Origin: an uncultured Clostridia bacterium
Lineage (GTDB): Bacteria; Bacillota; Clostridia; TANB77; CAG-508
DNA: 64,000 nt
Reading direction: 5' to 3'
Assembly (NCBI GenBank): GCA_948976265.1
Contig: CARFUA010000001.1
Span: forward strand, 56,331 to 120,330
Shown here: positions 3,985 through 51,256 of the stretch, piece after piece
How positions within the stretch are numbered: position 1 is the stretch's first letter
How the letters are laid out: each line of letters begins with the position of its first letter
Made by a program: the position numbers and the translations under genes
The notes under the pieces: generated by a model
What the model saw: the letters and a program-made list of their open reading frames with translations, nothing else
Databases searched by the model: none
Told to the model about the DNA's origin: nothing

Positions 3985-4585
3985 ATGGCAAATTATTCAC
4001 CATCCATTGAAAAATTAATTGAAAGTTTCGAAAAATTGCCAAGTATTGGGCATAAAACCGCACAACGATTGGCGTTTTATATGTTAGATGTAACACAAGA
4101 AGAAGCGAAAGAGTTTACAGATGCAATTTTGAATGCAAAGAAAAATTTAAAATTTTGTTCCAGATGTTTTAATATTTCAGATACAGACCCATGTAATATT
4201 TGCTCTGATTTAAAAAGAGATCAAAGCACAATTTGCGTAGTAGAAGATGTGCGCGATGTTTTTGCAATGGAAAGAACGCATGAATATAAGCGGTGTATAT
4301 CATATTTTACACGGTTCTATTTCTCCGATGAATGGAATTGGACCAGATGATATAAAAATTAAAGAATTATTGACCAGATTAATGGATGGAACAGTCAAAG
4401 AGTTAATTTTAGCGACCAATCCACGTGTGGAAGGAGAAGCAACTTCGATGTATATCTCAAAACTGGTTAAACCAATGGGGATTAAAGTTACAAGAATTGC
4501 AAGAGGAATTCCAGTTGGAGGCGATTTAGAATATACCGACGAAATCACACTTATGAAGGCATTGGAAGGAAGAAGTGAAATTTGA
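3985..4585 (+). CDS. recR: Recombination protein RecR, interrupted by a +1 frameshift at an in-frame CGG (4291-4293).
   Basis: ORFs 3985..4350 and 4247..4585 carry the N- and C-halves of RecR (C4 zinc finger, Toprim). Removing the C at 4291 yields [23 protein letters not shown], matching the conserved RecR GxYHVLxG motif. Confidence 0.85.
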
Positions 4586-6707: not shown

Positions 6708-6783
6708 TGGTGCGCCATAGAGGGGTCGAACCTCCGACCATCAGATTAAGAGTCTGCTGCTCTACCAACTGAGCTAATGGCGC
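6708..6783 (-). tRNA. tRNA-Lys (anticodon CTT).
   Basis: The reverse complement folds as a canonical cloverleaf: GCGCCAT acceptor, GCTC/GAGC D-stem, anticodon loop CTCTTAA, TTCGACC T-loop, discriminator A and CCA. The anticodon loop is a normal 7 nt. Confidence 0.85.
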
Positions 6784-11467: not shown

Positions 11468-12209
11468 ATGGAAAGTATAGGTACTATAACAATTTACGGG
11501 TTATTATTTGGTATGTTAGGGACGACTTTGGGGGGCTTGATTGGGGCATTTTTAAAAGTTCGTTCTAATAAAATATTGAGTTTTGTATTAGAATTTGCGG
11601 CTGGACTAATGACCGCTATTATTTGTTTTGATTTAATACCAGAAGCTTTAGAGTTTGCTAAGATAACGGGATGTCTAATTGGAATCATCATTGGCGTTGC
11701 GGTTATGATATTGTGCGATGAGATGATTAGTCGAATTAATTTTGCCAAAAAGGATGTAAAAAATAATACATTGTTTAAAACAGGAATGATTATTTGTGTT
11801 GGGCTTGCAGTGCATAATTTCCCAGAACGGATTGGCAATTGGTTCAGGATTTGATGCTTCTACAACATTAGGATTATCACTTGCGATTGCGATTGCCATT
11901 CATGATGTACCAGAAGGAATCTCCATTGCACTGCCGATTAACAACAGTGGATATGGAAAAGCTAAAGCAATTATTCTTACTGCGTTATCAGGAGTAACAA
12001 CAGGAATCGGTGCTTTTTTTGGGGCAATTATTGGAAATATTTCGAAAGAATTGATAGGATTTTCTTTGGCATTTGCAGCTGGAGCAATGCTTTATATTGT
12101 CTCTTGTGAGTTGATTCCAGAATCGAATAAAATGTATAAAGGAAGATTTTCATCTTTTGGGAATATCTTGGGAATTACATTAGGAGTTTTGGCAAATGTA
12201 ATAACTTAA
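11468..12209 (+). CDS. ZIP-family zinc/metal transporter (ZupT/GufA-like), interrupted by a +1 frameshift at an in-frame CGG (11828-11830).
   Basis: ORFs 11468..11854 and 11796..12209 cover the two halves. Deleting the C at 11828 restores the conserved HNFPEGLAIGSGF motif. Confidence 0.8.
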
Positions 12210-18021: not shown

Positions 18022-18108
18022 AATTTTCATCAAATCATCTTTTGCTATTGATATTATATACATATTTTGATATAATATGCCTATAATAAAGATATGGAGG
18101 TGCATATT

Positions 18109-18366
18109 ATGCCAATTATTAGACCAAGTTCAGATTTAAGGAATAAATATAATGAAATATCCAACCTATGTCATGAAACAAACGCTCCGATATACATTAC
18201 CAAAAATGGAACTGGTGATTTAGCAATTATGAGTATAGAGTTGTATGAATGTTTAATTGAGAGATTTGAGATATATGGAAAAATAGAAAAAGGACTTAAA
18301 TCTGTAAAAAATGGAGAAGAATATTCAGTAGATGAAGTTTTTGACGAAATAGAAGGCGAGGTATGA
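18109..18366 (+). CDS. Type II antitoxin, Phd/YefM family.
   Basis: 86 aa. GGAGGTG RBS. The stop overlaps the toxin start (ATGA). Confidence 0.65.
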   Translation: MPIIRPSSDLRNKYNEISNLCHETNAPIYITKNGTGDLAIMSIELYECLIERFEIYGKIEKGLKSVKNGEEYSVDEVFDEIEGEV

Positions 18367-18367
18367 A

Positions 18368-18670
18368 TTGAATCATTATACAATAAAAATTACAAAAGAG
18401 GCGAAAGATGATTTAAAATTAATTAAAAACTATTTAGCCGATAATTTACAAGAGTTAATTATAGCCAATAAAGTCATAAGGAAATTAAAAGAAAGCATAA
18501 ATAGTCTTTCAAGTTTTCCAGAACGTTTTCCGATTGTAAGTGATTATTATCTTTCAATACGAAATTTAAGAAAATATACGATTGATAAATATATCATTTT
18601 TTATACGGTAGAAAGAGATAAAAAAATAGTACATATTATTAGAATTCTGCATGGTAAGATTGACTGGTAA
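18368..18670 (+). CDS. Type II toxin, RelE/ParE family.
   Basis: 100 aa. The C-terminal IIRILHGKIDW motif is typical of ParE/RelE. Translationally coupled to the upstream antitoxin. Confidence 0.65.
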   Translation: MNHYTIKITKEAKDDLKLIKNYLADNLQELIIANKVIRKLKESINSLSSFPERFPIVSDYYLSIRNLRKYTIDKYIIFYTVERDKKIVHIIRILHGKIDW

Positions 18671-37737: not shown

Positions 37738-38274
37738 ATGGAAGAAGAAAACTTACAGGGAAAATATTTCAGTATTACTGATCCAAAGGAGGTAAACACT
37801 GTAATATATCAAGTAAACAGAACTGAAAAAGAATTTCTAGACAGAGCACCTAAATTTACAGTAGAAAGGTTAGATTTTTCAGAGCAACTTGTTGGAGAAA
37901 AAAAGAGAAAGACATTTTTTGTTGATCATCCTGCACCAGAAGGAAATCCATTGGTGTTTTTATCATTTGGAAAAGATAAAGTTGTAGTAAACACAGGATT
38001 TTTGGATTACGACGAAGTTAAAATCTCAAAAAAACCAATGCCAATGAAACTCTCAACCATTTATAATGAAAAAGAAACTGTTTACAGAGAGTTTGAATAT
38101 ACTCCAAACATGAAAAGACCTATTTCTATAATAGATCCAGAAACAACAGAAGAAGTAAAACCAACTTTGTATTTCGACGAGGAAGCAAATGAGGTAAAAG
38201 GAAAATGCACGCTAAAAGCATGCAAAAAATATTTTGCCTTTCAAATAAGTGATAGAAAAAATAGGAAGGCTTAA
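37738..38274 (+). CDS. Hypothetical protein, the first gene of the putative mobile-element remnant.
   Basis: 178 aa ORF with a GGAG RBS. Confidence 0.45.
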   Translation: MEEENLQGKYFSITDPKEVNTVIYQVNRTEKEFLDRAPKFTVERLDFSEQLVGEKKRKTFFVDHPAPEGNPLVFLSFGKDKVVVNTGFLDYDEVKISKKPMPMKLSTIYNEKETVYREFEYTPNMKRPISIIDPETTEEVKPTLYFDEEANEVKGKCTLKACKKYFAFQISDRKNRKA

Positions 38275-38287
38275 GGAGGAGAATTTT

Positions 38288-38710
38288 ATGAATCATTCCG
38301 ATGCTCCAACTGGAGAAAATGGAAATAGAAAATTAGAACAATATCGACAAATGAATGTAAAAGAGGTAGCCAAGGAATCACTAGCCGAAAAATGGGCAGA
38401 TTTTTTACAAGACCAAACAATAGAAGGTCACCTTGAATATGGACAGCAATATGGCGAATTTTTAGTCTTAGATATTCCAGAGATACCAGAAAAAAACAAA
38501 GATAGCATTTTTCAAAGTGTAGAATCAAGTGTTTTAGAAATAGTTAGAGAGGATACTTTTGTAAAAGCAACAACACTTCTACCAGAAACGGAGAAAAACA
38601 AAGAAGCATTTAAGCGAGCGAGAGAAAAAGCAAAAATGCAAGGTCAAATTAGAATAGAGCGTGCCAATAAAGGAAGCAAACAATCGACACAAGAAAATAC
38701 AGAGAGATAA
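38288..38710 (+). CDS. Hypothetical acidic protein.
   Basis: AGGAGGAG RBS upstream of the ATG. 140 aa. Confidence 0.45.
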   Translation: MNHSDAPTGENGNRKLEQYRQMNVKEVAKESLAEKWADFLQDQTIEGHLEYGQQYGEFLVLDIPEIPEKNKDSIFQSVESSVLEIVREDTFVKATTLLPETEKNKEAFKRAREKAKMQGQIRIERANKGSKQSTQENTER

Positions 38711-38735
38711 TTTACAGAAGAAAAGGTGATAAATT

Positions 38736-40704
38736 ATGAGTTTTTTTGATAAAATAAAAGCGGCCTTTAGAAAAATAAAAACAAAATTAATTGTATATTT
38801 AGTAATTATAATTGTAGTAGCAATTATGGGAGTGGCACCATTTAATGTATCAGTTCAAGAAGGACAAATGGCAGCAGAAGCGGGAGAAGACTTTTTCGCT
38901 GTTTTCTTTACACAACTATTTCATAATATTCAAAAGCCATTATCTTGCTTAGGAGAATGCTTTTCATTATACTTTAGTGCTTTTATGAATACATTAAAAT
39001 GGTATTTATTTGTGTGTTCGATTTTTGGGATTATAGGTTTATTGAAGGCGTTTCCAAAGCATGAATTTCAAGATATAGAAAATGGCTCTAGTGATTGGAG
39101 TGAAAATGGAGAACAATATGCAGTTCTAAGTAAAAAAAAGGGAATTATATTAGCAGAAAAAAATTATTTGCCTGTAGATAAACGTGGTAATGTTAATGTA
39201 TTAGTTGTGCGGAGGTTCTGGTGCTGGTAAATCAGCTTCTTACGTTAAGCCAAATGCCTTACAACTTTTGGGTTCTTATGTTTTTACTGACCCGAAAGGA
39301 GAATTATATGACGATACAGCTGGCTATTTCAAATCACAAGGTTACGATATAAAAGTATTAAATTTAGTGCATCCACAAAACAGCGATGGCTACAACCCAC
39401 TTCACCATATCAACAATGAAATTGATGTTGACGTTATTGCACATACCATTGTAAAAGGACAAAGTGACGGAAGTGGTTCTGATCCATATTGGGAAGACAT
39501 GGGTGAAATGTTACTAAAAGCATTGATTTATTATTTAAAAGCAGTACGACCACCAGAAGAGCAGAATTTAGCAAGCTGTTCCGAACTAGTAAGAGCAGCC
39601 AACAATAATGGTGGTGATAACCTACTAACCAATCTAATGAATCAACTACCATATGACCATCCAGCTAGAATGAACTATAAATCCATTGAAATTGCGCCAG
39701 AAAAAACGTATGGTTCTATCTTAAGTACATTACAATCTAAATTGGGTAAGTTTGATTCAAGAGAAATTGCAGAAGTAACTTCAACAGACACGATTGATTT
39801 TACCTCCATTGCTAAAAAGAAAACAGCTGTATATGTTATTTCTTCAGATACACATACTGCTTATGATTTTCTACTAACCATATTTTTCTCGCAAATGATT
39901 CAGCAATTGTATGATTTTGCAGATATCAATGGAGGCGCTTTGCCAATTCCTACATATTTTATATTAGATGAGTTTGCAAACATAGGTCAAATTCCAGATT
40001 TCGATAAAAAAATATCGACTTCAAGAAGTAGAAAAATTTCTTTTAGTGTAATTCTACAAAATCTAGATCAGCTAGAGGCTGTATATAAAGAGGCGCATGA
40101 AACCATTCTAGGTAACTGTGATACGCATTTATTCTTGGGTTCTAACTCGCAAAAAACAGTAGAATATTTCTCAAAGGCATTAGGAGAAAAAACAATTACT
40201 AGAGATAGTATTAATGTAAATAAAGATAGGGATAATTGGAAAACAGGTTTAAGTCAATCTGACCAAATTATGGGAAGAGCACTTATGACACCAGATGAAC
40301 TTCGCCGAATGGATGAAGATATGTGTATCATTTATGAAAAAGGAATTAAGCCGGTTAAGGCAAATAAATATTATTATTTTAAATATCCAGAAGGAAAAAT
40401 TATTAAAAAATATAAAGTTGACCACAATGATGTTCATATTGAAAGAGGACCATGGAGAAAATATAATCCATATAATCCTTATGTAGAAGGGCAAGAAAAC
40501 AAGGGTGGAAATCCACAAACTTTAGAAAATTTAGATAATTTATTCCAAGAAGAAGATGGACTAAAATCAGATACAAATCCTGCAGGTAAGCTTCCAGTTG
40601 ATTCAAACGAAAAAGAAGAAGCTAATAAAAAGGAGGAGTTGACAGATATTCAAAAAGAACTAGAAGCAAAATTTGATGAATTATTTGGGAGTTTAGAAGA
40701 ATAA
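38736..40704 (+). CDS. Type IV secretion coupling protein (VirD4/TraG/TraD family ATPase), interrupted by a +1 frameshift at an in-frame CGG (39210-39212).
   Basis: Two N-terminal TM helices. Removing the C at 39210 restores the Walker A NVLVVGGSGAGKSASY. The C-terminal half carries typical T4CP motifs. Confidence 0.75.
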
Positions 40705-40748
40705 AAGTGAGGGACGTAAAAGTTATGCGTCCCTCACTTTTATTTTGG
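40705..40748 (+). terminator. Strong rho-independent terminator after the T4CP gene.
   Basis: A 13-bp perfect stem (agtgagggacg...cgtccctcact) followed by a T-tract. Confidence 0.8.
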
Positions 40749-41030
40749 TAGTTCCCAAAAACAAAGTGCATGTGTCAAAGGGGAATTTAATTTGCTCAAA
40801 AAGCGCTCTAAAAATCATTTTAAGAGGTTTGTTTGGTGGATTGGTATAAATTTACGCTTGAAGAAAAAAAGGTTGCTAAATGGGGCGTTTAGAATGTTGT
40901 CAGAAAAAACATTTTTCTGAGACCAACTGATTTTATGACTATAGGAAGCTGTAAGACTGATTTAGACAGCGATTTCTGTGGTTTTTAGTCATTTATCATT
41001 AAAAACAGAAAAATAGCTTAGAATTCATAA

Positions 41031-41522: not shown

Positions 41523-42594
41523 ATGAAATTTGTTCATATTGCAGATATGCATTTTGATAGTCCTTTTACAGGACTAAATGTGGTGGATAATTTAGGAGAC
41601 ATTAGGAGACTGGAGCAAAGAGAGGTTTTTCGAAAAATAATAGATTATATCCAAAAAAACGCAATTGACTATTTGTTGATAGCAGGAGATTTATACGAGC
41701 AACAATATATTAGAAAATCCACCATAGAATTTATAAATAATCAATTTGAAACAATCAAAAACACGAAAATATTTATAGCACCGGGAAATCATGATCCGTA
41801 TGTTAAAAATTCTTATTATGATAGTTTTCAATGGAGTCAAAATGTACACATTTGCAAACATGAATTGGAACGAATAGAAGAACCGGAAGTTGACATTTAT
41901 GTAACCGCTTTTACGAATTTTTTTCAGAATGAGTCGCCCATTGAAAAAATGGAAATAAAGAATGCCAACAAGTGCAACTTATTGCTAACACATTGCGATT
42001 TAAACGGTAGAAAAGACCAAAATCGGTTTTGCTTATCATCCAATATCAGAATCTCAATTGAGTGCTTTAGCGTTTGATTATGTGGCAATGGGACATATTC
42101 ATAAACCAAGTATTACTCAAAGTGGGAAAATGGTCTATCCTGGGTCACCAATTTCTTTTGGATTTGATGAAATGGGAGAACATGGAATGAGGGTTGGAGA
42201 GGTCACGAAGCAAAGCTTGCAGACCGAATTTGTTAAACTTGATGAAAGACAATTTGAGAAACGAGAATTATCAGTAAATAATTTGCTAATACAGGAAGAT
42301 TTGGTGGAAACAATAGAAAATTTGGAATTGAAAAGAAATCATATGTATGAAATAGTTTTGGTGGGAAATCGACAATTTGAGATGAATCCAAGAGAAATTT
42401 TAAAACTAATTCCAACCCCTAATATTTTAAAAATAAAAGATAGTACAAAAATGGCTTATAATATAGAAGAAATTGCAAAAGAGAATAATTTGAGGGGAAT
42501 TTTTGTAAGAGAAGTTATAAAAAAATACCAGAATGGAGATTATTCAGAAGAGCAAATCCAAAAGGCAATTGAACTTGGCTTAGAAGCGATGTAA
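41523..42594 (+). CDS. sbcD: Mre11/SbcD-like nuclease (YhaO-like calcineurin phosphoesterase), interrupted by a +1 frameshift at an in-frame CGG (42024-42026).
   Basis: MKFVHIADMHFD...GNHD phosphoesterase motifs in ORF1 and GHIHK in ORF2. Deleting the C at 42024 joins the frames as ...KDQN-G-FAYHPISESQLSALAFDYVAMGHIHK. Confidence 0.75.
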
Positions 42595-42609: not shown

Positions 42610-44214
42610 ATGAATTTGAAAATTGAAGAGATAAAAATAAATGGATTTGGCAACGTGAAAAATAGAAGAATCGAGTTAAAAGATGGAATTAATATTATTT
42701 ATGGAGCAAATGAATCAGGAAAATCAACGATTTTGAAATTTGTAGAGTCTGTTTTGTATGGCATATCCAAAAATAAAAATGGGAAAAACATTTCAGATTT
42801 TGACCGTTATAAACCGTGGGATGATTCCGAATTTTCAGGGAAAATCAAATATACGTTGGACAATGGGAAACAATATGAAGTTTTTCGTGATTTTAAAAAG
42901 AAAAGTCCCATCATTTATCAAGCCAATGAGGACATTTCTAAGGAATTTGAGATAGACAAAACAAAGGGAATTCGCTTTTTAGAACAACAAATTGGAATCG
43001 ATGAAATTGCATTTTGTAATACGATTATGATGAAACAACAAGAGGTAAAACTTGGAAAAGTAGAGACCAATAGTATGGTACAAAAGATTAGTAATTTGGT
43101 TTCAACAGGAGATGATAACATCTCTTTCCAAAAATCTATGGACAAGTTAAACAAGTGGCAAAACGAAAAAATCGGAACAGAGCGAACGAAACAAAAGCCG
43201 ATTAATATTGTAGATAGTAAATTAAAACAGTTATTAGATGAAAAAAGAACATTAATGGGGTATCGAGAAAATATAGTTCACCAAGATAAGCAAAAAGAAC
43301 AGATAAAATCTCAACTAGATAAATTACAACAAGAAAAAGAGAAATTAAAAAATAATAGGCAAAGTGTTAATGAAGATAAAATCAAAAATATGGAAATGCA
43401 TTTCCAATTGAAAATAGCAATGGCAGTAGCTATATTTCTCGTTATTTTGGGGGGCGTATTATTGTTGACAACAAAGAATCGATGGTTTGCATTAGCTCCA
43501 GTAATACTATTAATTGCAGATATTTTTGCGATTTTGAAAGTACGCCAAAAGCTCAATCCAAAAGATTCTGAGTTTGACTTTTCGAATATGGAGAAAAAGA
43601 TTGAGAAAATGGAAGCAGAAATAGGAGATTTACAACTAAAAAGTCACATTTTGGAAACAGAAAGAGCCAAAGTAGATGAAAAAATAGAACAGCTGGCGAG
43701 AATAGAAGAAGAATGGGCGGAGCAAAAAGAAATCAAGGATGAGCTACTTTCCTTAAATGTATCCTATAATATTGCTAAGGAATGTCTGATAAAAGCGTAT
43801 GACGAAATAAAACATAATTTGAGTCCACAGTTTGAACAGAAATTATGTGAAATAACAGCAGATTTGACAGATGGAAAATATAAAAATATCGCTGTGAGTG
43901 ATGAAAAAGGCTTGTCAATAGAAGTCGAAAATGGTGCTTATATGCCAGTAGACAGGCTAAGTATTGGAACCATTGATGAAATGTATTTGGCGTTAAGATT
44001 GAGTATTTTGGCGGAAATTTCAAAAGAAAAGTTGCCGATTTTTTTGGATGAAACGTTTGCTTTTTTTGATGAAAAGCGTTTGAAAAATATCATTTGTTAT
44101 TTGCAAGACCAGAATTATGATCATCAGATTTTGATTTTTTCTTGTAGCAATCGAGAAATAGAGGTGTTGGAACAATTAAAAATAGAATATCATTTAATAA
44201 ACCTTGAAAATTAG
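42610..44214 (+). CDS. SbcC/YhaN-like ABC-type ATPase with coiled coil and central TM helices.
   Basis: Walker [10 protein letters not shown], a coiled-coil region, two TM helices, and a C-terminal signature/Walker [11 protein letters not shown]. Confidence 0.7.
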
Positions 44215-44254
44215 AAAAAATTGGTGTATAATATCATCAGAAAGGAATGATAAA

Positions 44255-45316
44255 ATGTTTCAAAAATTAGAAGGTGTAGAAAAGCGATATGAAGAATTAA
44301 ATCAGTTGATTAGTGACCCAGAAGTGATTTCAAATCAATCGGAATGGCAAAAATTAATGAAAGAACACGGAAGTTTAGAAGATGTAGTAGAAAAATATCG
44401 AGAATATAAAAAAGTAAAACAACAAATGGAAGAAGCAAAAGAAATGCTAAATGACCCAGAACTAAAAGAATTGGCAAGCATGGATTTTGAAGAGGCAAAA
44501 GAAAACTTACCTAAAATCGAAGAAGAATTGAAATTTCTTTTAATTCCCAAAGACCCAAATGATGATAATAATGTTATTTGTGAAATCAGGTCAGGTGCTG
44601 GAGGAGAAGAAGCGGCGCTATTTGCAGGGACGCTTTTTAGAATGTATTCGATGTACGCAGAAAGAAAAAATTGGAAATTGGATATTGTAAATGAAAATGC
44701 CACAGAACTTGGTGGTTACAAAGAAATTACATTTATGATAACAGGAAAAGGCGCGTATAGTCGATTCAAATTTGAGAGTGGTGTTCATCGTGTACAACGT
44801 GTTCCAGATACCGAAAGTAGTGGAAGAATACACACTTCAACTGTAACGGTAGCCGTACTTCCAGAAGTAGAAGATGTGGAAATTGAATTAAATCCTGCGG
44901 ATATAAAAATGGAAGTATTTCGAGCATCAGGAGCAGGTGGACAGCATATTAATAAAACGTCTTCAGCAGTTAGATTGATTCATGAGCCAAGTGGGATTGT
45001 GGTTGAATGTCAAACGCAAAGGTCACAAGTGCAAAATCGAGAATATGCAATGAAAATGTTGCGTTCAAGATTATATGAAATTGAGAAGGAAAAGCAAGAT
45101 TCAGCAGTTGCCAATGAAAGAAAGAGTCAAGTTGGAACAGGAGATAGAAGTGAGAAAATTAGAACGTATAATTATCCGCAAGGACGTATTACGGACCATA
45201 GAATTGGAATGAGTATATTCCAATTTGAGAATTTTTTGAATGGTGATTTAGACGAATTAATTGACAATTTAATTGCAACGGATAGAGCAGAAAAATTAAA
45301 AGGAAATGAGGAATAA
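44255..45316 (+). CDS. prfA: Peptide chain release factor 1.
   Basis: The PxT-type anticodon motif ([14 protein letters not shown]) and the GGQ motif ([11 protein letters not shown]) are present. The RF2 SPF motif is absent. Confidence 0.88.
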
Positions 45317-45320
45317 AAGG

Positions 45321-45350
45321 TAGAGGCGATAATAAATCGCCTCTATGTTT
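45321..45350. terminator. Bidirectional terminator between prfA and mecA.
   Basis: agaggcgat-aataa-atcgcctct hairpin followed by a T-tract. Confidence 0.6.
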
Positions 45351-45937
45351 CATTTATGTAGTACGTTTTCTGTTACTAATTTTCCACATTCTTTGATTTT
45401 ATGCATAATCAAATCTGAATTTTGAATGGGAGTGGCAAATTCGCTGATAACACTTGATAGAGTTGTTGCATAGGAAGGTTCCAAATTTTGTAAAATGAAG
45501 AAAAAGCAATCATTATATTGATATAATGAATTGGTTTCCGTTAGATTATCGACTAAGTTTGGTAAAGAAATGGATAAAAAGTTAGTAAAATTGCAAAAAT
45601 CATCAAAATTTGAGAACTTGTAAATAAAAGTATTGTTGGTAGCAACAATTGTTTTTCTATGAGCCTGTACGCGTGTGGATTTTAGAACTTCTTTTTCAAT
45701 TCTTGTAACAGTAATAATAAAACTACCATTGCTAAGTGCAATTGCTTCAATGGAAAGTTTGTAATTGTCAGTGATAAAGCCTACTTCACGCTCTGCTTTA
45801 TCTAACATGGTTAAAAACAAACTTTGACTTTCGATAGAATTGGACATAAAAGAATGGACATCAATATTATTTTCTTTTAAATCAGAATGATTAAATGTGA
45901 TTCGAATTCTATTTTCATTAACTTTCTCTATTTTCAT
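45350..45937 (-). CDS. mecA: Adapter protein MecA (ClpC adaptor).
   Basis: N-terminus MKIEKVNENRIRITFNHSDLKENNIDV resembles the MecA N-domain. Confidence 0.65.
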   Translation of the reverse strand: MKIEKVNENRIRITFNHSDLKENNIDVHSFMSNSIESQSLFLTMLDKAEREVGFITDNYKLSIEAIALSNGSFIITVTRIEKEVLKSTRVQAHRKTIVATNNTFIYKFSNFDDFCNFTNFLSISLPNLVDNLTETNSLYQYNDCFFFILQNLEPSYATTLSSVISEFATPIQNSDLIMHKIKECGKLVTENVLHK

Positions 45938-46016
45938 AAGGCAAACCTCCTAAACATAATTTAATTATACTACGTCTAAACAAAAAGTAAATACTAAATT
46001 TCTGGAAAAACTGGAA

Positions 46017-46235
46017 CTGTTAAAGCTTTGCTTGTTACAGTTCCAGTTGTTACTATTTGTGGATACAAATAGTAACTTCCTTAAAATAGACTGTTAAAGC
46101 TTTGCTTATTACAGTTCCAGTTGTTACTATTTGTGGATACAAATAGTAACTTCCTTAAAATAGACTGTTAAAGTTTTGCTTATTACAGTCCCAGTTGTTA
46201 GTATTTGTGGATACAAATACTAACTTTCTGATTGC
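46017..46235. repeat. Tandem array of 3 copies of a 74-bp unit, each containing an 11-bp-stem hairpin/palindrome, in the mecA-radC divergent intergenic region.
   Basis: Copies are 46017-46090, 46091-46164 (1 mismatch) and 46165-~46235 (diverged). The palindrome is gttactatttg-tggata-caaatagtaac. Copy 3 has a compensatory C-G to G-C flip. Confidence 0.85.
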
Positions 46236-46362
46236 TTCTTTTAATTATATTAAGAAATCTTGAAAAATGTACTAAAATTACTTGAAAAATTTACATTATC
46301 ACGATATAATAGATAACAATAATTCTATTTGGGGGAGAAATAAGTGAACAGAAAGGAAAAAT

Positions 46363-47043
46363 ATGGCAACCAAAATGAATTTATTACCAATGTCAGAAAG
46401 ACCATATGAAAAATTACTTACTTATGGAGAAGAGACATTAAGCAATAGTGAATTATTGGCAATTATTATAAAAACTGGAACAAAAGATACAACAGCATTA
46501 GATTTAGCAAGACAAGTGATGAATTTAAGTTTATATGGAAATCGAAATGATTTACGATTTTTGCAAGAAATTTCTATCCATGAACTGATGAAAATTAATG
46601 GAATTGGCAAAGTAAAAGCAATTGAACTAAAAGCGATTGGCGAAATTGCTAAACGAATGTCAAAACCAATTAATTTAGATAAAATCTGCATCAAAACCAA
46701 AGCGGATGTAGCCAACTTGTTAATGCAGGAAATGCGATATGAAAAAAAGGAAATATTAAAACTGATTTTATTAAACAACAAAAACATTGTACAAAAAATA
46801 ATTGATATTGCAACTGGAAAAGATAATACATTAATATTTGATATCAAACAAATTTTATCCGAACCCATTAAATTACAAATACCAAAAATTGTTCTAGTAC
46901 ATAACCATCCGAGTGGAAATTCTATGCCAAGTCAAGAAGATATCCAAGCAACGAAAAGAATCCGTCAATCTTGTGAATTGATGGGGATTCAATTATTAGA
47001 CCATATTATTATTGGGGATGGCGAATATCATAGCGCAATTTAA
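46363..47043 (+). CDS. radC: RadC-family JAB/MPN domain protein.
   Basis: C-terminal LVHNHPSGNSMPSQEDIQATKRI (JAMM motif) and an N-terminal HhH region. Confidence 0.85.
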   Translation: MATKMNLLPMSERPYEKLLTYGEETLSNSELLAIIIKTGTKDTTALDLARQVMNLSLYGNRNDLRFLQEISIHELMKINGIGKVKAIELKAIGEIAKRMSKPINLDKICIKTKADVANLLMQEMRYEKKEILKLILLNNKNIVQKIIDIATGKDNTLIFDIKQILSEPIKLQIPKIVLVHNHPSGNSMPSQEDIQATKRIRQSCELMGIQLLDHIIIGDGEYHSAI

Positions 47044-47104
47044 AGAGGAGAACAGTTGGACCAAATAAAGTCGCCTTAAATTCCAAAAGGAAAGGAATGA
47101 AAAG

Positions 47105-47920
47105 ATGAATCGAAATAAACAATCGAATATATTAGGTGGAATCATAACATTTATTATATTAATTTTATTAATCTTTCTTTCAAATGTTCAAAATGATAAA
47201 TTATCCTTTTTAGAAAGTGTAGTTAACTCAATTGTAACACCAATTCAAAGAGTATTTACTGACTTAAAATATAAAATACAAGGAAATTCAGCTTATTTTA
47301 CAAATTTAGAAAATTTGCAAGCAGAAAATAAAGAGTTGAAAGAAACAAATAGTAAATTGGAAACAGAACTACGTGAGCTAGAAAGCATAAAAGCGGACAA
47401 TGTTACGCTTCAAGAATACATGAATTTAACCAAAAAATATGCGGATTACAATACAATCCCAGCTTATATCATCAACAAAGATGTAAGCAACTACAGCAGT
47501 GATTTAGTGATTAATGTAGGAAAAGCGGATGGAGTAGAAGTAAACATGACAGTAATTGCAGATAAAGGTTTAGTGGGGCATATTATATCTGTCACAGAGC
47601 ATACAGCTAAAGTGCAAGTAATTGTAGATGCGGCTAGTACAGTAAGTTGTAATATTAGTACAACAGAACAAAGTATTATTTGCAAAGGAACCATAGAAAA
47701 AAATCAAATTTTAAGAGCGTCGTATATTCCGACAGATGCAGAATTGATTCAAGGAGATAACGTATATACTTCTGGAATCGGAGGAATTTATCGAAAAGGC
47801 ATTTTAATTGGTACAATCGAAGAAATTATAACAACTACCAATGTAATTGATCGCTATGCTACGATTAAGCCAGCTGTGGATTTTGCCACAGTCGATACAG
47901 TATTAGTAATCAACAATTAG
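47105..47920 (+). CDS. mreC: Rod shape-determining protein MreC.
   Basis: N-terminal TM helix, a coiled coil, and MreC beta-domain motifs (GLVGHIISVTEHTAKVQ). Confidence 0.85.
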   Translation: MNRNKQSNILGGIITFIILILLIFLSNVQNDKLSFLESVVNSIVTPIQRVFTDLKYKIQGNSAYFTNLENLQAENKELKETNSKLETELRELESIKADNVTLQEYMNLTKKYADYNTIPAYIINKDVSNYSSDLVINVGKADGVEVNMTVIADKGLVGHIISVTEHTAKVQVIVDAASTVSCNISTTEQSIICKGTIEKNQILRASYIPTDAELIQGDNVYTSGIGGIYRKGILIGTIEEIITTTNVIDRYATIKPAVDFATVDTVLVINN

Positions 47921-47930
47921 GAGGAAATTC

Positions 47931-48464
47931 ATGAAAAAAACAACCATAACGATTATCTTAATTTTAACATTTTTCATCCTATTTTATCTACAAGCAAATG
48001 TTTTTCAAATGTTGACAATAGCAGGAGTCATGCCGAATTTATTTGTGATATTTATTTTATTTGTAAGTTTATCATCAAATGCCACTTTGGGAATATCTTT
48101 TGGGGTAATAGGCGGATTAATGATTGATTTAGTCTACAGCAAAGCTGTGGGAATTACAGCGGTTATGTTATGTTTGGTAGGTTATTTGGGGGCTTATTTT
48201 GACCGTAATTTTTCAAAGGAAAATAAAATAACAATTATCATCATGTCTGCTTTGGCGACCATTTTATTTGAATTTGGCTATTATATACTAAATTCTGTCA
48301 TTGTAGGATTTGATTTGGAATTATTCTATTTCATAAAGATATTATTGATTGAAGTATTATATAATATCTTGCTAGTCATTCTATTTTATCCTTTGATTCA
48401 AAAAGCAGGCTACACAATGGACAGGGCATTTAAGAGAAATAATATTTTAACAAGATATTTTTAG
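47931..48464 (+). CDS. mreD: Rod shape-determining protein MreD.
   Basis: 177 aa polytopic membrane protein in the conserved position after mreC. Confidence 0.7.
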   Translation: MKKTTITIILILTFFILFYLQANVFQMLTIAGVMPNLFVIFILFVSLSSNATLGISFGVIGGLMIDLVYSKAVGITAVMLCLVGYLGAYFDRNFSKENKITIIIMSALATILFEFGYYILNSVIVGFDLELFYFIKILLIEVLYNILLVILFYPLIQKAGYTMDRAFKRNNILTRYF

Positions 48465-48486
48465 AGTTTTATAAATTGATAAGAAG

Positions 48487-50616
48487 GTGAGAGAAACGAG
48501 ATTAAATAATGAATTACAAAACTTAAATTTTAGATTTAATATGCTTTCTGTTCTTGTATATGTGATAGGCGTGATTGTATTAATCCGATTATTTGATTTG
48601 CAAATTATTAATGGACAAGAATATCGAGAAGATTCAAACACGAGATTATCTCGTGAATCGACAATAGAAGCGGCAAGAGGAAGCTTCACAGATCGTTATG
48701 GAAATGTGTTGGTCAGTACAGATATGAGTTTTTCGCTTGAAATGTATAAAACAAAAGTAGAAGATGAACAACTAAATAATTCTATTTTGTTGATGACAAC
48801 AATATTGGAAAATAACGGAGATAGTTATCTGGATACATTTCCAATTAGTATTGAGCCGTTTGAATATCATTTTGAGTCTGATGAAAAGTTGGCTCAATGG
48901 AAAAAAACTTACAAAATCCCAGAAACGGCTTCTGCGGAAGAAGCATTTTATTTGATGCGAGATAAATATAAAATTGAAACCGACGACATTAAAGATATTC
49001 GAAAAATTCTAAGCATACGATATGGAATTACGACTACTGGTTATTCAGCTACTAAATCAATTAGCATTTCAGAAAAAATATCAAGAGAGAGTGCCATTCA
49101 GTTACAAGAAAGAAGTCAGGAATTAACGGGTGTTAATATTGTAAAAGAACCAATTCGAAAATATCATACAGCAAATATGGCGTCTCATATTTTAGGATAT
49201 ATGGGAAGAATTGGCCCAAAAGATTTGGAAGAATTAGAGAAAAGTGGCGATAATTATGAATATAAAACAACCGATAAAATTGGAAAAACAGGAGCAGAAA
49301 AAGTATTCGAAGAATATCTAAGAGGCGAAGACGGTGTAAAACAAATTGACATGTCAGTAGACGGAACAATAACCGGTGAATATACTGCCAAAGAAGCCAA
49401 AGGTGGTGCAGATGTCATATTAACAATTGATTCTAATCTCCAAAAAATAACGGAAAGAGCATTGGTGACTAATATCGAAAAAATCCGAACAGGAGGTTTT
49501 TCTCAAAGATATGATACTAAAGGAGGTTCTGTTGTAGTAACCAACGTAAAAACAGGAGAAATCTTGGCAATGGCGAGTTATCCAGATTATGAACCAGAAC
49601 TGTTTTATAACGGAATCAGCAATGAAAAATATGCGGAATATGACAAAAATCCATTAACACCATTGCATAATCGAGCCATTTCTAGTCCTTATGCGCCAGG
49701 TTCAACTTTCAAAATGATAACAGCTATTGCAGCATTAGAAACAGGAGTCACCAATACAACAGAAAGAATTAATGATAGTGGTCCTTATCCAGCAGCTCAT
49801 CATCCAGCTTGTTGGTATTATAATACGTATAGAAGAGGTCATGGTCCGTTAAATGTAACGGGGGCGATTGAAAAGTCGTGTAATTATTTCTTTTATGAAG
49901 TAAGTAACCGAATGGGAATTGACAATTTAGAAAAATATGCAAGTTATTTTGGATTGGGACAAAAAACAGGCATCGAATTATATAATGAAAGAACAGGCGT
50001 TTTAGCCAATAGAAGGATTACAGAAAGCAAAGGAACTTCTTGGATGGTAGGAGATACTTTAGTTGCATCTATAGGACAAGGGTATAACAACTTTACACCA
50101 GTACAAATGGCAAAATATATTTCTATGATAGCCAATGGTGGAAAAAAGATTGATTTAAGTATTGTAAAAAATGTCATTCGAGCGGATGGAACGCAAGTGC
50201 CAGAATCAGAAATAAAAGAATTTACCAATAAAAAATTAGGAATTGAACCAAATAATACAGAAGATTTACAAATCAGCGAACAAACGATAAATGCTGTATT
50301 AGAAGGAATGAGGTCAGTAACATCCGATGAAGGCGGAACAGCACATTCTGTTTTTTCAGACTTTGATATTGTTGTAGGTGGAAAAACAGGTTCTGCTGAA
50401 ACTACAAATGGTGATGTAAATGCATGGTTCGTGGGATTTGCACCGTTTGATGACCCTGAAATTGCAGTTGTTGTAATTGTAGAAAATGGAGGACACGGTT
50501 CTTATACAGCAGAAGTTGTAAGAGAAATTATTGCAGAATATTTTGGAATGAATCTTCAGCAAATGACAGGAATAGAAGATATGTCAGCAGAAAATGAAAT
50601 GGAAAGAATTACTTAA
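48487..50616 (+). CDS. mrdA: Penicillin-binding protein 2 (elongation-specific transpeptidase).
   Basis: N-terminal TM helix, a dimerisation domain, and the transpeptidase motifs STFK (GSTFKMITAIAALE), SCN and KTGS. Confidence 0.88.
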   Translation: MRETRLNNELQNLNFRFNMLSVLVYVIGVIVLIRLFDLQIINGQEYREDSNTRLSRESTIEAARGSFTDRYGNVLVSTDMSFSLEMYKTKVEDEQLNNSILLMTTILENNGDSYLDTFPISIEPFEYHFESDEKLAQWKKTYKIPETASAEEAFYLMRDKYKIETDDIKDIRKILSIRYGITTTGYSATKSISISEKISRESAIQLQERSQELTGVNIVKEPIRKYHTANMASHILGYMGRIGPKDLEELEKSGDNYEYKTTDKIGKTGAEKVFEEYLRGEDGVKQIDMSVDGTITGEYTAKEAKGGADVILTIDSNLQKITERALVTNIEKIRTGGFSQRYDTKGGSVVVTNVKTGEILAMASYPDYEPELFYNGISNEKYAEYDKNPLTPLHNRAISSPYAPGSTFKMITAIAALETGVTNTTERINDSGPYPAAHHPACWYYNTYRRGHGPLNVTGAIEKSCNYFFYEVSNRMGIDNLEKYASYFGLGQKTGIELYNERTGVLANRRITESKGTSWMVGDTLVASIGQGYNNFTPVQMAKYISMIANGGKKIDLSIVKNVIRADGTQVPESEIKEFTNKKLGIEPNNTEDLQISEQTINAVLEGMRSVTSDEGGTAHSVFSDFDIVVGGKTGSAETTNGDVNAWFVGFAPFDDPEIAVVVIVENGGHGSYTAEVVREIIAEYFGMNLQQMTGIEDMSAENEMERIT

Positions 50617-50641
50617 AAACAGACCAAAAAAGGGAGGAACA

Positions 50642-51256
50642 ATGATGTTAAACAATGTAAGAATAAAGCAAACAACCAAAGAAATCATATTAAGTGTCAA
50701 TATGCAAACAGAAAGTCAACAGATTATTCAAGAGTTGGAAGAAAAGTTACCCAAATTAAAAGAGTTTTATCAAAACTCTAATGTACCAATGAGAGTAACG
50801 GGAAAATTATTTACCGAAGCAGATAGAAAAATCATAGAAAAAATGATTATAGAAGAAATAAAAGTAGAAGTGAAGTTTGATGAGCCATCTGACCTTTTGG
50901 GACTGCATGCTATCAAAAAAACCTTTGAAATTGATACGGAAATTTCAGAAACGAAATATATCTACAATTCAATTCGTTCTGGAATGAAAGAAGAATTTGT
51001 AGGAAGTATTGTGATTTGTGGAGATGTTCATTCTGGTGCAGAAATTGTGGCTGGAGGAAACATCATTATATTGGGTACATTGAGAGGGGTTGTACATAGT
51101 GGAGCCAATGGAAACAATAAAGCCATTATAGCAGCAAACACCATTGAAGCAACACAAATCAGAATTTCAAATTTAGTGAAAGAAGTCACAGAAAAAGAAG
51201 AAAGATGCCCTATTTTTGGTATTAAGAATGATGCGATAGAATTACTAGAAAATTAA
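50642..51256 (+). CDS. minC: Septum site-determining protein MinC.
   Basis: C-terminal beta-helix repeats ICGDVHSGAEIVAGGNIIILGTLRGVVHSGANG. No minD or minE follows in this window. Confidence 0.8.
   Translation: MMLNNVRIKQTTKEIILSVNMQTESQQIIQELEEKLPKLKEFYQNSNVPMRVTGKLFTEADRKIIEKMIIEEIKVEVKFDEPSDLLGLHAIKKTFEIDTEISETKYIYNSIRSGMKEEFVGSIVICGDVHSGAEIVAGGNIIILGTLRGVVHSGANGNNKAIIAANTIEATQIRISNLVKEVTEKEERCPIFGIKNDAIELLEN

Follow-up and report, generated by a model that had tools for sequence, protein, structure and literature searches.

A palindromic 74-bp tandem repeat in the divergent mecA-radC spacer of an uncultured gut Clostridia bacterium

Introduction

The 425-bp spacer between the divergent genes mecA and radC, in a metagenome-assembled genome (MAG) of an uncultured Clostridia bacterium from the mouse gut (31% G+C), contains a 74-bp unit repeated three times head to tail. 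Each copy carries a perfect hairpin, and in the third copy two opposite bases of the stem have changed together so that they still pair. The DNA analysed, referred to below as the window, is a 64-kb stretch of this genome which includes the spacer. The question which the locus raises is what keeps the arms of these hairpins complementary. The first-pass annotation of the same DNA took the paired change as a signature of selection on the structure, and proposed either a reiterated operator for a dimeric regulator or a set of structured small-RNA or terminator-like modules. The array is an intergenic palindromic tandem repeat, which is a known kind of element. The reading which we favour, with a confidence that falls a little short of even, is that it is a locus-bound palindromic minisatellite, the arms of which are kept complementary mainly at the DNA level, which expands by unequal crossover and which has at most an architectural role.

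Results

A search of the window with Tandem Repeats Finder placed the array at 46016-46226 (period 74, 2.9 copies, 96% matches, 0 indels, score 387), where it is by a wide margin the strongest repeat found. The three units lie at 46016-46089, 46090-46163 and 46164-46237, and score 98.2, 75.8 and 81.6 bits, respectively, with the covariance model described below. Units 1 and 2 differ by a single base (99% identity), and for unit 3 the identity is 82%, a figure that is owed to its diverged last ~12 nt. The three near-identical 74-bp units reported at first pass were recovered by both Tandem Repeats Finder and the repeat search, the earlier coordinates being one base off register, which is immaterial. 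Exactly three occurrences in the window were counted for the 28-nt hairpin, and likewise for the 33-nt opening half of the unit, with 0 expected from 100 shuffles. The array thus consists of head-to-tail units longer than 10 bp with high identity, as in a minisatellite or variable-number tandem repeat (VNTR). A CRISPR array can be dismissed, as had already been recognised: the repetition extends over all 74 bp, with the inter-hairpin sequence included, there are no identical short repeats alternating with unique spacers, and no CRISPR-DR match from Rfam falls inside the array.

Each unit contains a hairpin, here called B, which was located by inverted-repeat search at 46049-46076 (unit 1, GTTACTATTTGT-GGAT-ACAAATAGTAAC, also seen by folding), 46123-46150 (unit 2) and 46197-46224 (unit 3). 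Its stem is 12 bp long and closes on the four-nucleotide loop GGAT, rather than being the 11-bp stem with a 6-nt loop first described. The double change in unit 3 is as had been reported, with C>G in one arm and G>C in the other (GTTACTATTTGT/ACAAATAGTAAC to GTTAGTATTTGT/ACAAATACTAAC); the T-rich sequence TTTCTGATTGCTTCTTTT follows directly, and a consensus scan flags this last hairpin as terminator-like. A second and longer hairpin, A, had been missed. It is complete at 46009-46048 (AACTGGAACTGT-[TTAAAGCTTTGCTTGTT]-ACAGTTCCAGTT; inverted-repeat search, folding and covariation), with a 12-bp stem, an internal loop, a 4-bp mini-stem AAGC/GCTT and a TTT triloop. Its arms are 16 nt apart and its loop region, TTAAAGCTTTGCTT, is conserved. 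The 5' arm lies to the left of the repeat register, hence hairpin A is complete in unit 1 only, and is reduced in units 2 and 3 to a stump of 5-6 bp (ACTGT/ACAGT in unit 2). The basic module is a stretch of ~72 nt made of two adjacent perfect hairpins, A and B. Folded as RNA, unit 1 with its flank reaches -34.6 kcal/mol (z = -8.0), and the opposite strand -33.0 kcal/mol (z = -8.5); under DNA parameters, the two strands reach -23.7 and -23.4 kcal/mol. The stems are AT-rich, with 3-5 G·C pairs per 12.

On its left, the array is bounded by a partial unit-like copy which is at the same time the region around the mecA -35 box: the 16 nt at 45989-46004 (AAATACTAAATTTCTG) match the last part of unit 3 (46215-46230) at 94% identity. 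The left flank as a whole (flank F, 45989-46008, AAATACTAAATTTCTGGAAAA; direct repeat, inverted repeat and spacer comparison) looks like a partial unit, being similar to the 3' arm of hairpin B with its linker. Judging from the relatives discussed below, this flank is ancestral, as it is present also where the module is absent. Consensus scanning predicts a mecA promoter on the minus strand (TTTACT-16-TATAAT, 45991-45964, 10/12) and a promoter for radC-mreC-mreD-pbp2 on the plus strand (TTGAAA-17-TATAAT, 46282-46310, 11/12). Because of the positions of these predicted promoters, the array is placed upstream of both predicted -35 boxes, in the promoter-distal part of the divergent spacer.

For the analysis of covariation, 11 units were aligned and scored against the two-hairpin structure. 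Paired cells amount to 91.3%, compared with 30-44% when the partners are slid by 1-3 columns. Double-sided changes are found in 12 of the 27 stem pairs (5 of 12 pairs in the B stem and 6 of 11 in the A stem), and none of 500 shuffles reaches the observed values. The same helices are predicted independently by RNAalifold. The stems of the seven full modules comprise 180 Watson-Crick pairs; A·C accounts for four of the mismatched positions, two more are mismatches of other kinds, and G·T is absent from the module strand. Hairpin B is free of wobble cells in all 11 units. The half-sites of B vary between species and even between adjacent units (GTTACTATTTGT, GTTAGTATTTGT, GTTAATCTTTGT, GTTACAATTGAT, GTTAATATTTAT), with perfect complementarity throughout, the invariant bases being the outer GTTA...TAAC and the central TT/AA. 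Between clades carrying the module in forward and in inverted orientation, identity amounts to 64-77% in the stems, to 74% in the A-loop region and to 29% in the B loop. The identity of the A-loop region ranges over 74-89%, with TTAAAG..T..CT invariant, and short conserved motifs (GTTGTTA and TAACTTC) are found at the feet of the hairpins. Pairing is clearly preserved; the B loop and linkers vary freely, and the A-loop region shows comparatively strong conservation.

The single compensatory change noticed at first thus generalises, in related genomes, to 12 of 27 pairs with double substitutions. Its interpretation as a signature of selection holds in one respect, in that pairing is preserved, but double changes alone are no proof, as template switching can also yield them in one step. 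Template switching during replication is documented to create perfect stems and to fix pairing in single events (PMC8794818); template-switch hairpins and quasipalindrome correction are also treated in a further source (PMC7202029).

The same divergent mecA-radC pair was found in 13 MAG species by MecA retrieval, and in more genomes through MecA homologues on contigs (the loci are numbered with the prefix L). In every relative, both promoter regions are kept along with a block of ~50 nt on the right-hand side of the array, and what varies is the content between them. The closest relative, L019 (87% MecA identity), has two diverged units, and L023 (77%) has two, the second of which is decaying. 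The L027-L030 loci (68-71%) have one full unit in inverted orientation, and L031 corresponds to L030 minus exactly one unit, with the deletion falling between CTTTAACAG repeats. Hairpin B alone is found in L110 (85%), a collapsed B in L122, and the 3' arm of B only in L021, L024, L111 and L127. Three loci (L020, L025 and L123) have a short palindrome on the mecA -35 block, L109 contains an unrelated 110-bp filler, and nothing recognisable is left in L022 and L108. In the two most distant relatives checked, L130 (64%) and L132 (61%), the conserved blocks are separated by 13-20 nt. The module therefore looks dispensable as far as these comparisons go, being absent, B-only or one-armed in most relatives with both promoter blocks kept.

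The junction between units (...AATAG/ACTGTTAAAG, with the slash at the unit boundary) is common to the window, L019 and L023, and occurs as its reverse complement in the inverted clade, where the module of L027-L030 retains the same unit junction (...AATAG/CTGTTAAAG). It follows from this shared junction that a module with a second partial unit should predate the split, and that the array was probably inverted as a block. Two independent insertions as the source of the inverted copy are disfavoured, as the inverted clade has the same internal junction. A neighbor-joining tree of MecA, built from this single protein and without support values, can be reconciled with an early origin and numerous later losses. 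New palindromes are also seen in some relatives. L130 has a 12-bp perfect palindrome, TTTCTTAATATA-N7-TATATTAAGAAA, the 3' arm of which is the conserved right block, and L020, L025 and L123 have AGTAAAT-N-ATTTACT, the 5' arm of which is the mecA -35 block. Together with the resemblance of the B arms to flank F, these cases suggest that the spacer may repeatedly generate inverted copies of its own flanks.

The number of units was compared between short-read assemblies. The count is three in the window, as it is in at least two independent assemblies. In sample XIAO15-1, a u1-u2-u2 series runs to the end of a contig and u3 opens a second contig, which gives at least 4 units, with identical MecA and RadC. 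Contigs tend to end at the array. In the species of L019, where the units are diverged, the same two-unit array was found without internal difference on 10 contigs, nearly all from different sequencing runs. Whole-unit differences between strains or close relatives, as in a VNTR, are therefore observed (3 against at least 4 units; 2 in L019 and in L023; L031 against L030). Such variation had been named at first pass as a sign against a functional reading, and it is seen here, the signs named to that effect having appeared in part only. Regarding the history of the units, position 19 of unit 2 is an A, as in unit 3 and in unit 2 of L019, and the remainder of unit 2 is like unit 1. We infer that unit 2 is a hybrid of unit 3 on the left and unit 1 on the right, as expected of unequal crossover in an ancestral two-unit array. 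Unit 3 is orthologous to unit 2 of L019 and is the older, terminal unit.

A covariance model was built from the 11-unit alignment and run on the window with filters off. It finds the three units only (98, 82 and 76 bits), the next match, at 24 bits (40703-40769), being an ordinary terminator after a gene for a type IV secretion system (T4SS) coupling protein. In 640 kb of related loci, it finds only copies in the mecA-radC spacer. The exact hairpin has 0 matches in 185,579 species genomes, among which the window species is not included; a degenerate pattern of the module gives only chance matches, without hairpins, in the JGI metagenomes and IMG/VR, and an 18-mer has nine isolated matches in IMG/VR, which were not inspected one by one. 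No match was obtained by blastn against phage and plasmid collections. A scan of the window at the Rfam gathering thresholds returns tRNA and signal recognition particle (SRP) RNA only. In a permissive scan of 45940-46360, the best match is mir-4637, at 29.5 bits against a cutoff of 89, an artefact of the palindrome, and no Rfam family (radC motif, Clostridiales-1 and terminator-like families included) reaches its gathering threshold, or the E-value threshold, at the array. On the matter of other copies, which the first-pass annotation had proposed to look for in the whole genome and in Rfam, none is found beyond the spacer in the window or in the 640 kb of related loci, and no Rfam family matches the unit. 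A Pfam scan of the 57 open reading frames (ORFs) of the window detects no transposase or HUH domain. The sole flanking direct repeat (16 nt) doubles as one arm of hairpin B, and the unit boundary cuts hairpin A.

Several other identities were considered for the unit and rejected. Its length of 74 nt is tRNA-like, and ARAGORN finds no tRNA in it. The sequence GTATCCACA, present in each B loop, matches a DnaA box at 8/9 positions, which is at chance level in the window (26 found, 23 expected), and the idea of a DnaA-box cluster, oriC or dif site also fails on the B loop being different in relatives (ATGC, GTCA and others). The GC skew is positive throughout the window with no switch, so that neither an origin nor a terminus is located there. 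On the minus strand, mini-ORFs of 24-29 codons per unit are found at 45994-46216 (TTG start, MYPQIVTTGTV..., with GGAAG placed ahead of the start at Shine-Dalgarno distance, GGAAG-N6-TTG). They are truncated in L023 and startless in the inverted clade, 74 is not a multiple of 3, and they are probably non-coding. Gene callers emit such peptides at contig ends, for example a 22-aa product in L004. Finally, promoters internal to the unit (TGGATA-16-TAAAAT on the plus strand and TTAACA-17-TACTAT on the minus strand) score only 9/12 and fall on non-conserved loop or linker bases or extend into a neighbouring unit, which is absent in single-copy species.

The local gene order is prfA (rightward), mecA (leftward), the spacer, and then radC, mreC, mreD and pbp2 (all rightward). 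The left neighbour of the array is mecA (45350-45937, minus strand), coding for the adaptor protein MecA (195 aa; Pfam PF05389, 2.9e-32), the -35 box and upstream flank of which are kept in all relatives compared. The right neighbour is radC (46363-47043, plus strand, 226 aa; RadC PF04002). The block to the right of the array (46240-46290, TTTTAATTATATTAAGAAATCTTGAAAAATGTACTAAAATTACTTGAAAAA; spacer comparison), located upstream of the radC -10 box, is near invariant down to 61% MecA identity, and the variable spacer ends there on its right side. Two occurrences of CTTGAAAAA, separated by 21-22 bp, and a minus-strand TATAAT are found in this block, which may represent the actual regulatory region of the radC-mreCD-pbp2 operon, or else a second promoter directed leftward. 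A weak lead only is offered by the conserved left flank at 45996-46010 (AAATTTCTGGAAAAA), which borders the mecA -35 box on its upstream side and agrees at 11/15 positions with the CodY-box consensus, AATTTTCWGAAAATT. In the outgroup loci L032 and L035, a small DUF4321 membrane-protein gene (PF14209, 1.8e-21) lies between the conserved promoter and radC; it is missing in the clade which includes the window. Directly after radC come mreC, mreD and a PBP2-type transpeptidase, without an intervening mreB (46363-50616), and minC is next at 50594-51256. Between the convergent prfA and mecA, a G+C-rich hairpin of 10-11 bp with T-tracts on both strands (45320-45346) is a textbook bidirectional terminator, in contrast to the AT-rich hairpins of the array. 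The prfA ORF (RF-1, 44204-45316, 370 aa) has a TTG start which overlaps the upstream sbcC-like gene, and its true start is probably a later one, giving the 353 aa called on other assemblies.

Elsewhere in the window, dnaX, ybaB and recR are found at one end, along with sporulation genes and an sbcCD-like pair. An SRP RNA (1865-1961, 55 bits) lies just upstream of the dnaX ORF call and overlaps it, a tRNA is located on the minus strand at 6711-6783, and a Phd/ParE toxin-antitoxin pair at 18094-18670. A TraG/VirD4-type T4SS coupling protein of 499 aa (39205-40704) is preceded by four small ORFs without Pfam match, and this region (37738-40704), ~5 kb to the left of the array, may be the remnant of a conjugative element among core genes. 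Three genes appear broken: recR (3985-4350) codes for 121 aa with the HhH and zinc-finger parts and without the Toprim part, two overlapping ORFs together make up a ZIP transporter (11468-12209), and the sbcD-like Metallophos gene is in two pieces (41523-42594). These are either assembly frameshift errors or pseudogenes.

Discussion

The behaviour of the stems is that of DNA palindromes: they are AT-rich, change two bases at a time, fold equally well from either strand, withstand inversion, and are either perfect or cut back to one arm. For a palindromic minisatellite maintained in this way, the following course of events can be proposed from the comparison of relatives. The module, with a second partial unit, would have arisen early in a genus-level clade of uncultured gut Clostridia, and would have been templated at least partly from the local flank, since the 3' arm of B and its linker resemble the mecA -35 region. 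Two units would have been retained in the lineages of the window, L019 and L023, the block would have been inverted in another lineage, and in most others the module would have been deleted to single arms or to nothing. In the window species, recent growth from two to three units (at least four in another strain) could have occurred by unequal crossover or slippage. The arms would be kept exactly complementary, likely by intramolecular templating during replication (template switching or quasipalindrome correction), and weak selection for a hairpin or cruciform may add to this. The array would have no trans-acting product, and its effect, if any, would be architectural: each unit adds 74 bp between the promoters, which is ~7 helical turns by our own arithmetic, as well as hairpins that may be extruded.

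A number of points weigh against this reading. Perfect stems persist at ~70% MecA identity, while the B loop (29%) and the linkers are randomised. The conserved A-loop region is a pattern that would also be expected of a functional structured element, and template switching accounts for the pairing without explaining either this conservation or the long persistence of the module. Both features leave some room for a functional structured element and for a REP-like mobile one. The inverted copy of one clade is more simply obtained with a mobile element than by inversion in situ. Lastly, the description of the array as locus-bound rests on ~0.7 Mb of sampled DNA, and the proposed order of events on the single-protein MecA tree.

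The best surviving alternative, which we nevertheless consider unlikely, is that selection acts on RNA folding, the array being either a small RNA or a hairpin barrier in cis (terminator or insulator) which keeps transcripts out of the mecA and radC promoters. The strong covariation in both stems, the conserved A-loop region and the folding z-scores of about -8 are in its favour, and so is the way in which the array is capped outward: on the minus strand, beside the mecA promoter, a TTTTT run comes after the complete hairpin A, and on the plus strand the last hairpin B, which was flagged as terminator-like, has its T-rich tail. The surviving hairpins of L110 and L122 are likewise followed by TTCTTTTT or TTTTTT, and that of L122 has two G·T pairs on the plus strand. 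However, the absence of G·T among the 180 pairs on the module strand is not what is expected of an RNA helix, the loops are of neither the GNRA nor the UNCG type, and the best Rfam score remains far from its cutoff. T-rich tails are found on the outermost hairpins only, the internal units and the inverted-clade copies being without U-tracts, and with 3-5 G·C pairs per 12 and a position upstream of both predicted promoters the hairpins would make atypical intrinsic terminators. There is no conserved promoter in or beside the module, its orientation relative to both genes flips between clades, and it is lost in most relatives. The sequence comparison hence yields neither the conserved promoter and terminator nor the fixed strand of an independent small-RNA gene. 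The small-RNA or terminator modules put forward at first pass accordingly find no positive support, with no Rfam family, conserved promoter or U-tract, an inverted module in L027-L030, and strands that fold equally.

We regard it as rather improbable that the module is a non-autonomous mobile hairpin, REP/BIME-like or moved by an HUH enzyme of the IS200/IS605 or RAYT type, which would have entered this spacer on two or more occasions, in opposite orientations, before its tandem duplication. Both orientations exist, the module is absent from the two most distant relatives checked, and it consists of two adjacent hairpins with conserved feet (GTTGTTA and TAACTTC), all of which would fit such an element, as would the unrelated filler occupying the same spot in L109 and the tendency of contigs to break at the array. 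Against it stands the lack of any extra copy in the window, the 640 kb of related loci, and the phage, plasmid, IMG/VR and JGI collections; moreover, neither a transposase nor an HUH enzyme is encoded by the 57 ORFs of the window, although a dispersed family of low copy number, or such a gene elsewhere in the genome, might still exist. In addition, the tandem boundary cuts the 5' arm of hairpin A and does not coincide with the ends of the module, one B arm resembles the local flank, and the junction shared by the inverted clade argues for one origin and inversion of the array rather than for two insertions.

Only a small chance is given, too, to the module being a functional structured nucleic-acid element of an uncultured gut Clostridia genus that has so far not been described, either a ssDNA or RNA hairpin pair recognised by a dedicated protein, for instance of the HUH type (through the A-loop TTAAAGCTTTGCTT and the feet GTTGTTA/TAACTTC) or an insulator that works in both orientations. 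If this were true, the protein-recognised hairpin pair would be the first REP-like mobile hairpin family in the lineage, and the insulator would serve to uncouple mecA from radC-mreCD at their divergent promoters, and could be tuned through its copy number.

A reiterated operator for a dimeric regulator, as also put forward at first pass, or an upstream activating site, bound as duplex DNA and controlling mecA and/or radC-mreCD with copy number tuning occupancy, is very improbable: although the palindromes are perfect, lie between divergent promoters, have an invariant B outer GTTA...TAAC and central TT/AA, and recur with a 74-bp period near an integral number of helical turns (by our arithmetic), the interior half-site bases change freely with their partners between species and even in adjacent units of one genome, 16 nt separate the two arms of hairpin A, the B-loop sequences that resemble a DnaA box at 8/9 positions occur at chance frequency and are not conserved, and most relatives have lost the palindromes or keep one arm while retaining both promoters and the right block.

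Should the array be a palindromic minisatellite maintained at the DNA level, it would offer a clean natural example of hairpins born from flanks, kept wobble-free, inverted, amplified and deleted. It would also be a caution that compensatory changes in perfect palindromes need not mean a functional RNA or a protein-binding site. On the practical side, short-read assemblies of this organism break at the array, which might also be used as a marker of strains. If the module were instead functional or mobile, it would be a new structured element in an uncultured gut lineage, the importance of which would still be local.

Among known systems, the mycobacterial MIRU-type repeats are intergenic tandem repeats of 40-100 bp which constitute VNTR loci. 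The array is like them in its head-to-tail intergenic units, the near-identity of neighbouring units, gain and loss in steps of one unit, and copy differences between strains with identical flanking genes. It is unlike them in that its unit is made of two perfect hairpins with pairing conserved across species, in that it was seen at one locus, and in that it persists with diverged units over a genus-level divergence. Enterobacterial REPs occur in hundreds of dispersed copies, mostly at the 3' ends of genes or inside operons, and are associated with RAYTs. Like REP/BIME elements, the module is made of extragenic palindromes, two of them with linkers in variable tandem, in either orientation and with structure kept over sequence; unlike them, it is found at a single locus upstream of both promoters, with none elsewhere in ~0.7 Mb and no transposase nearby. 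With intrinsic terminators, the array shares stable stem-loops and, for the two outermost hairpins, outward T-rich tracts, but its stems are AT-rich, its internal units and the inverted-clade units have no T-tract, and it is located upstream of divergent promoters and not downstream of genes. The LhrC1-5 loci of Listeria are tandem small-RNA genes, each of which has its own promoter, terminator and conserved single-stranded seed. The resemblance lies in several structured units of ~70-110 nt placed head to tail in one intergenic region, and the difference in that the module has no conserved promoter, terminator or seed and that its orientation flips between clades. Finally, the array shares with template-switch hairpins (PMC8794818, PMC7202029) its perfect Watson-Crick stems, its multi-base changes without wobble and the inverted copies of neighbouring sequence, template switching being, unlike the element families above, a mutational mechanism.

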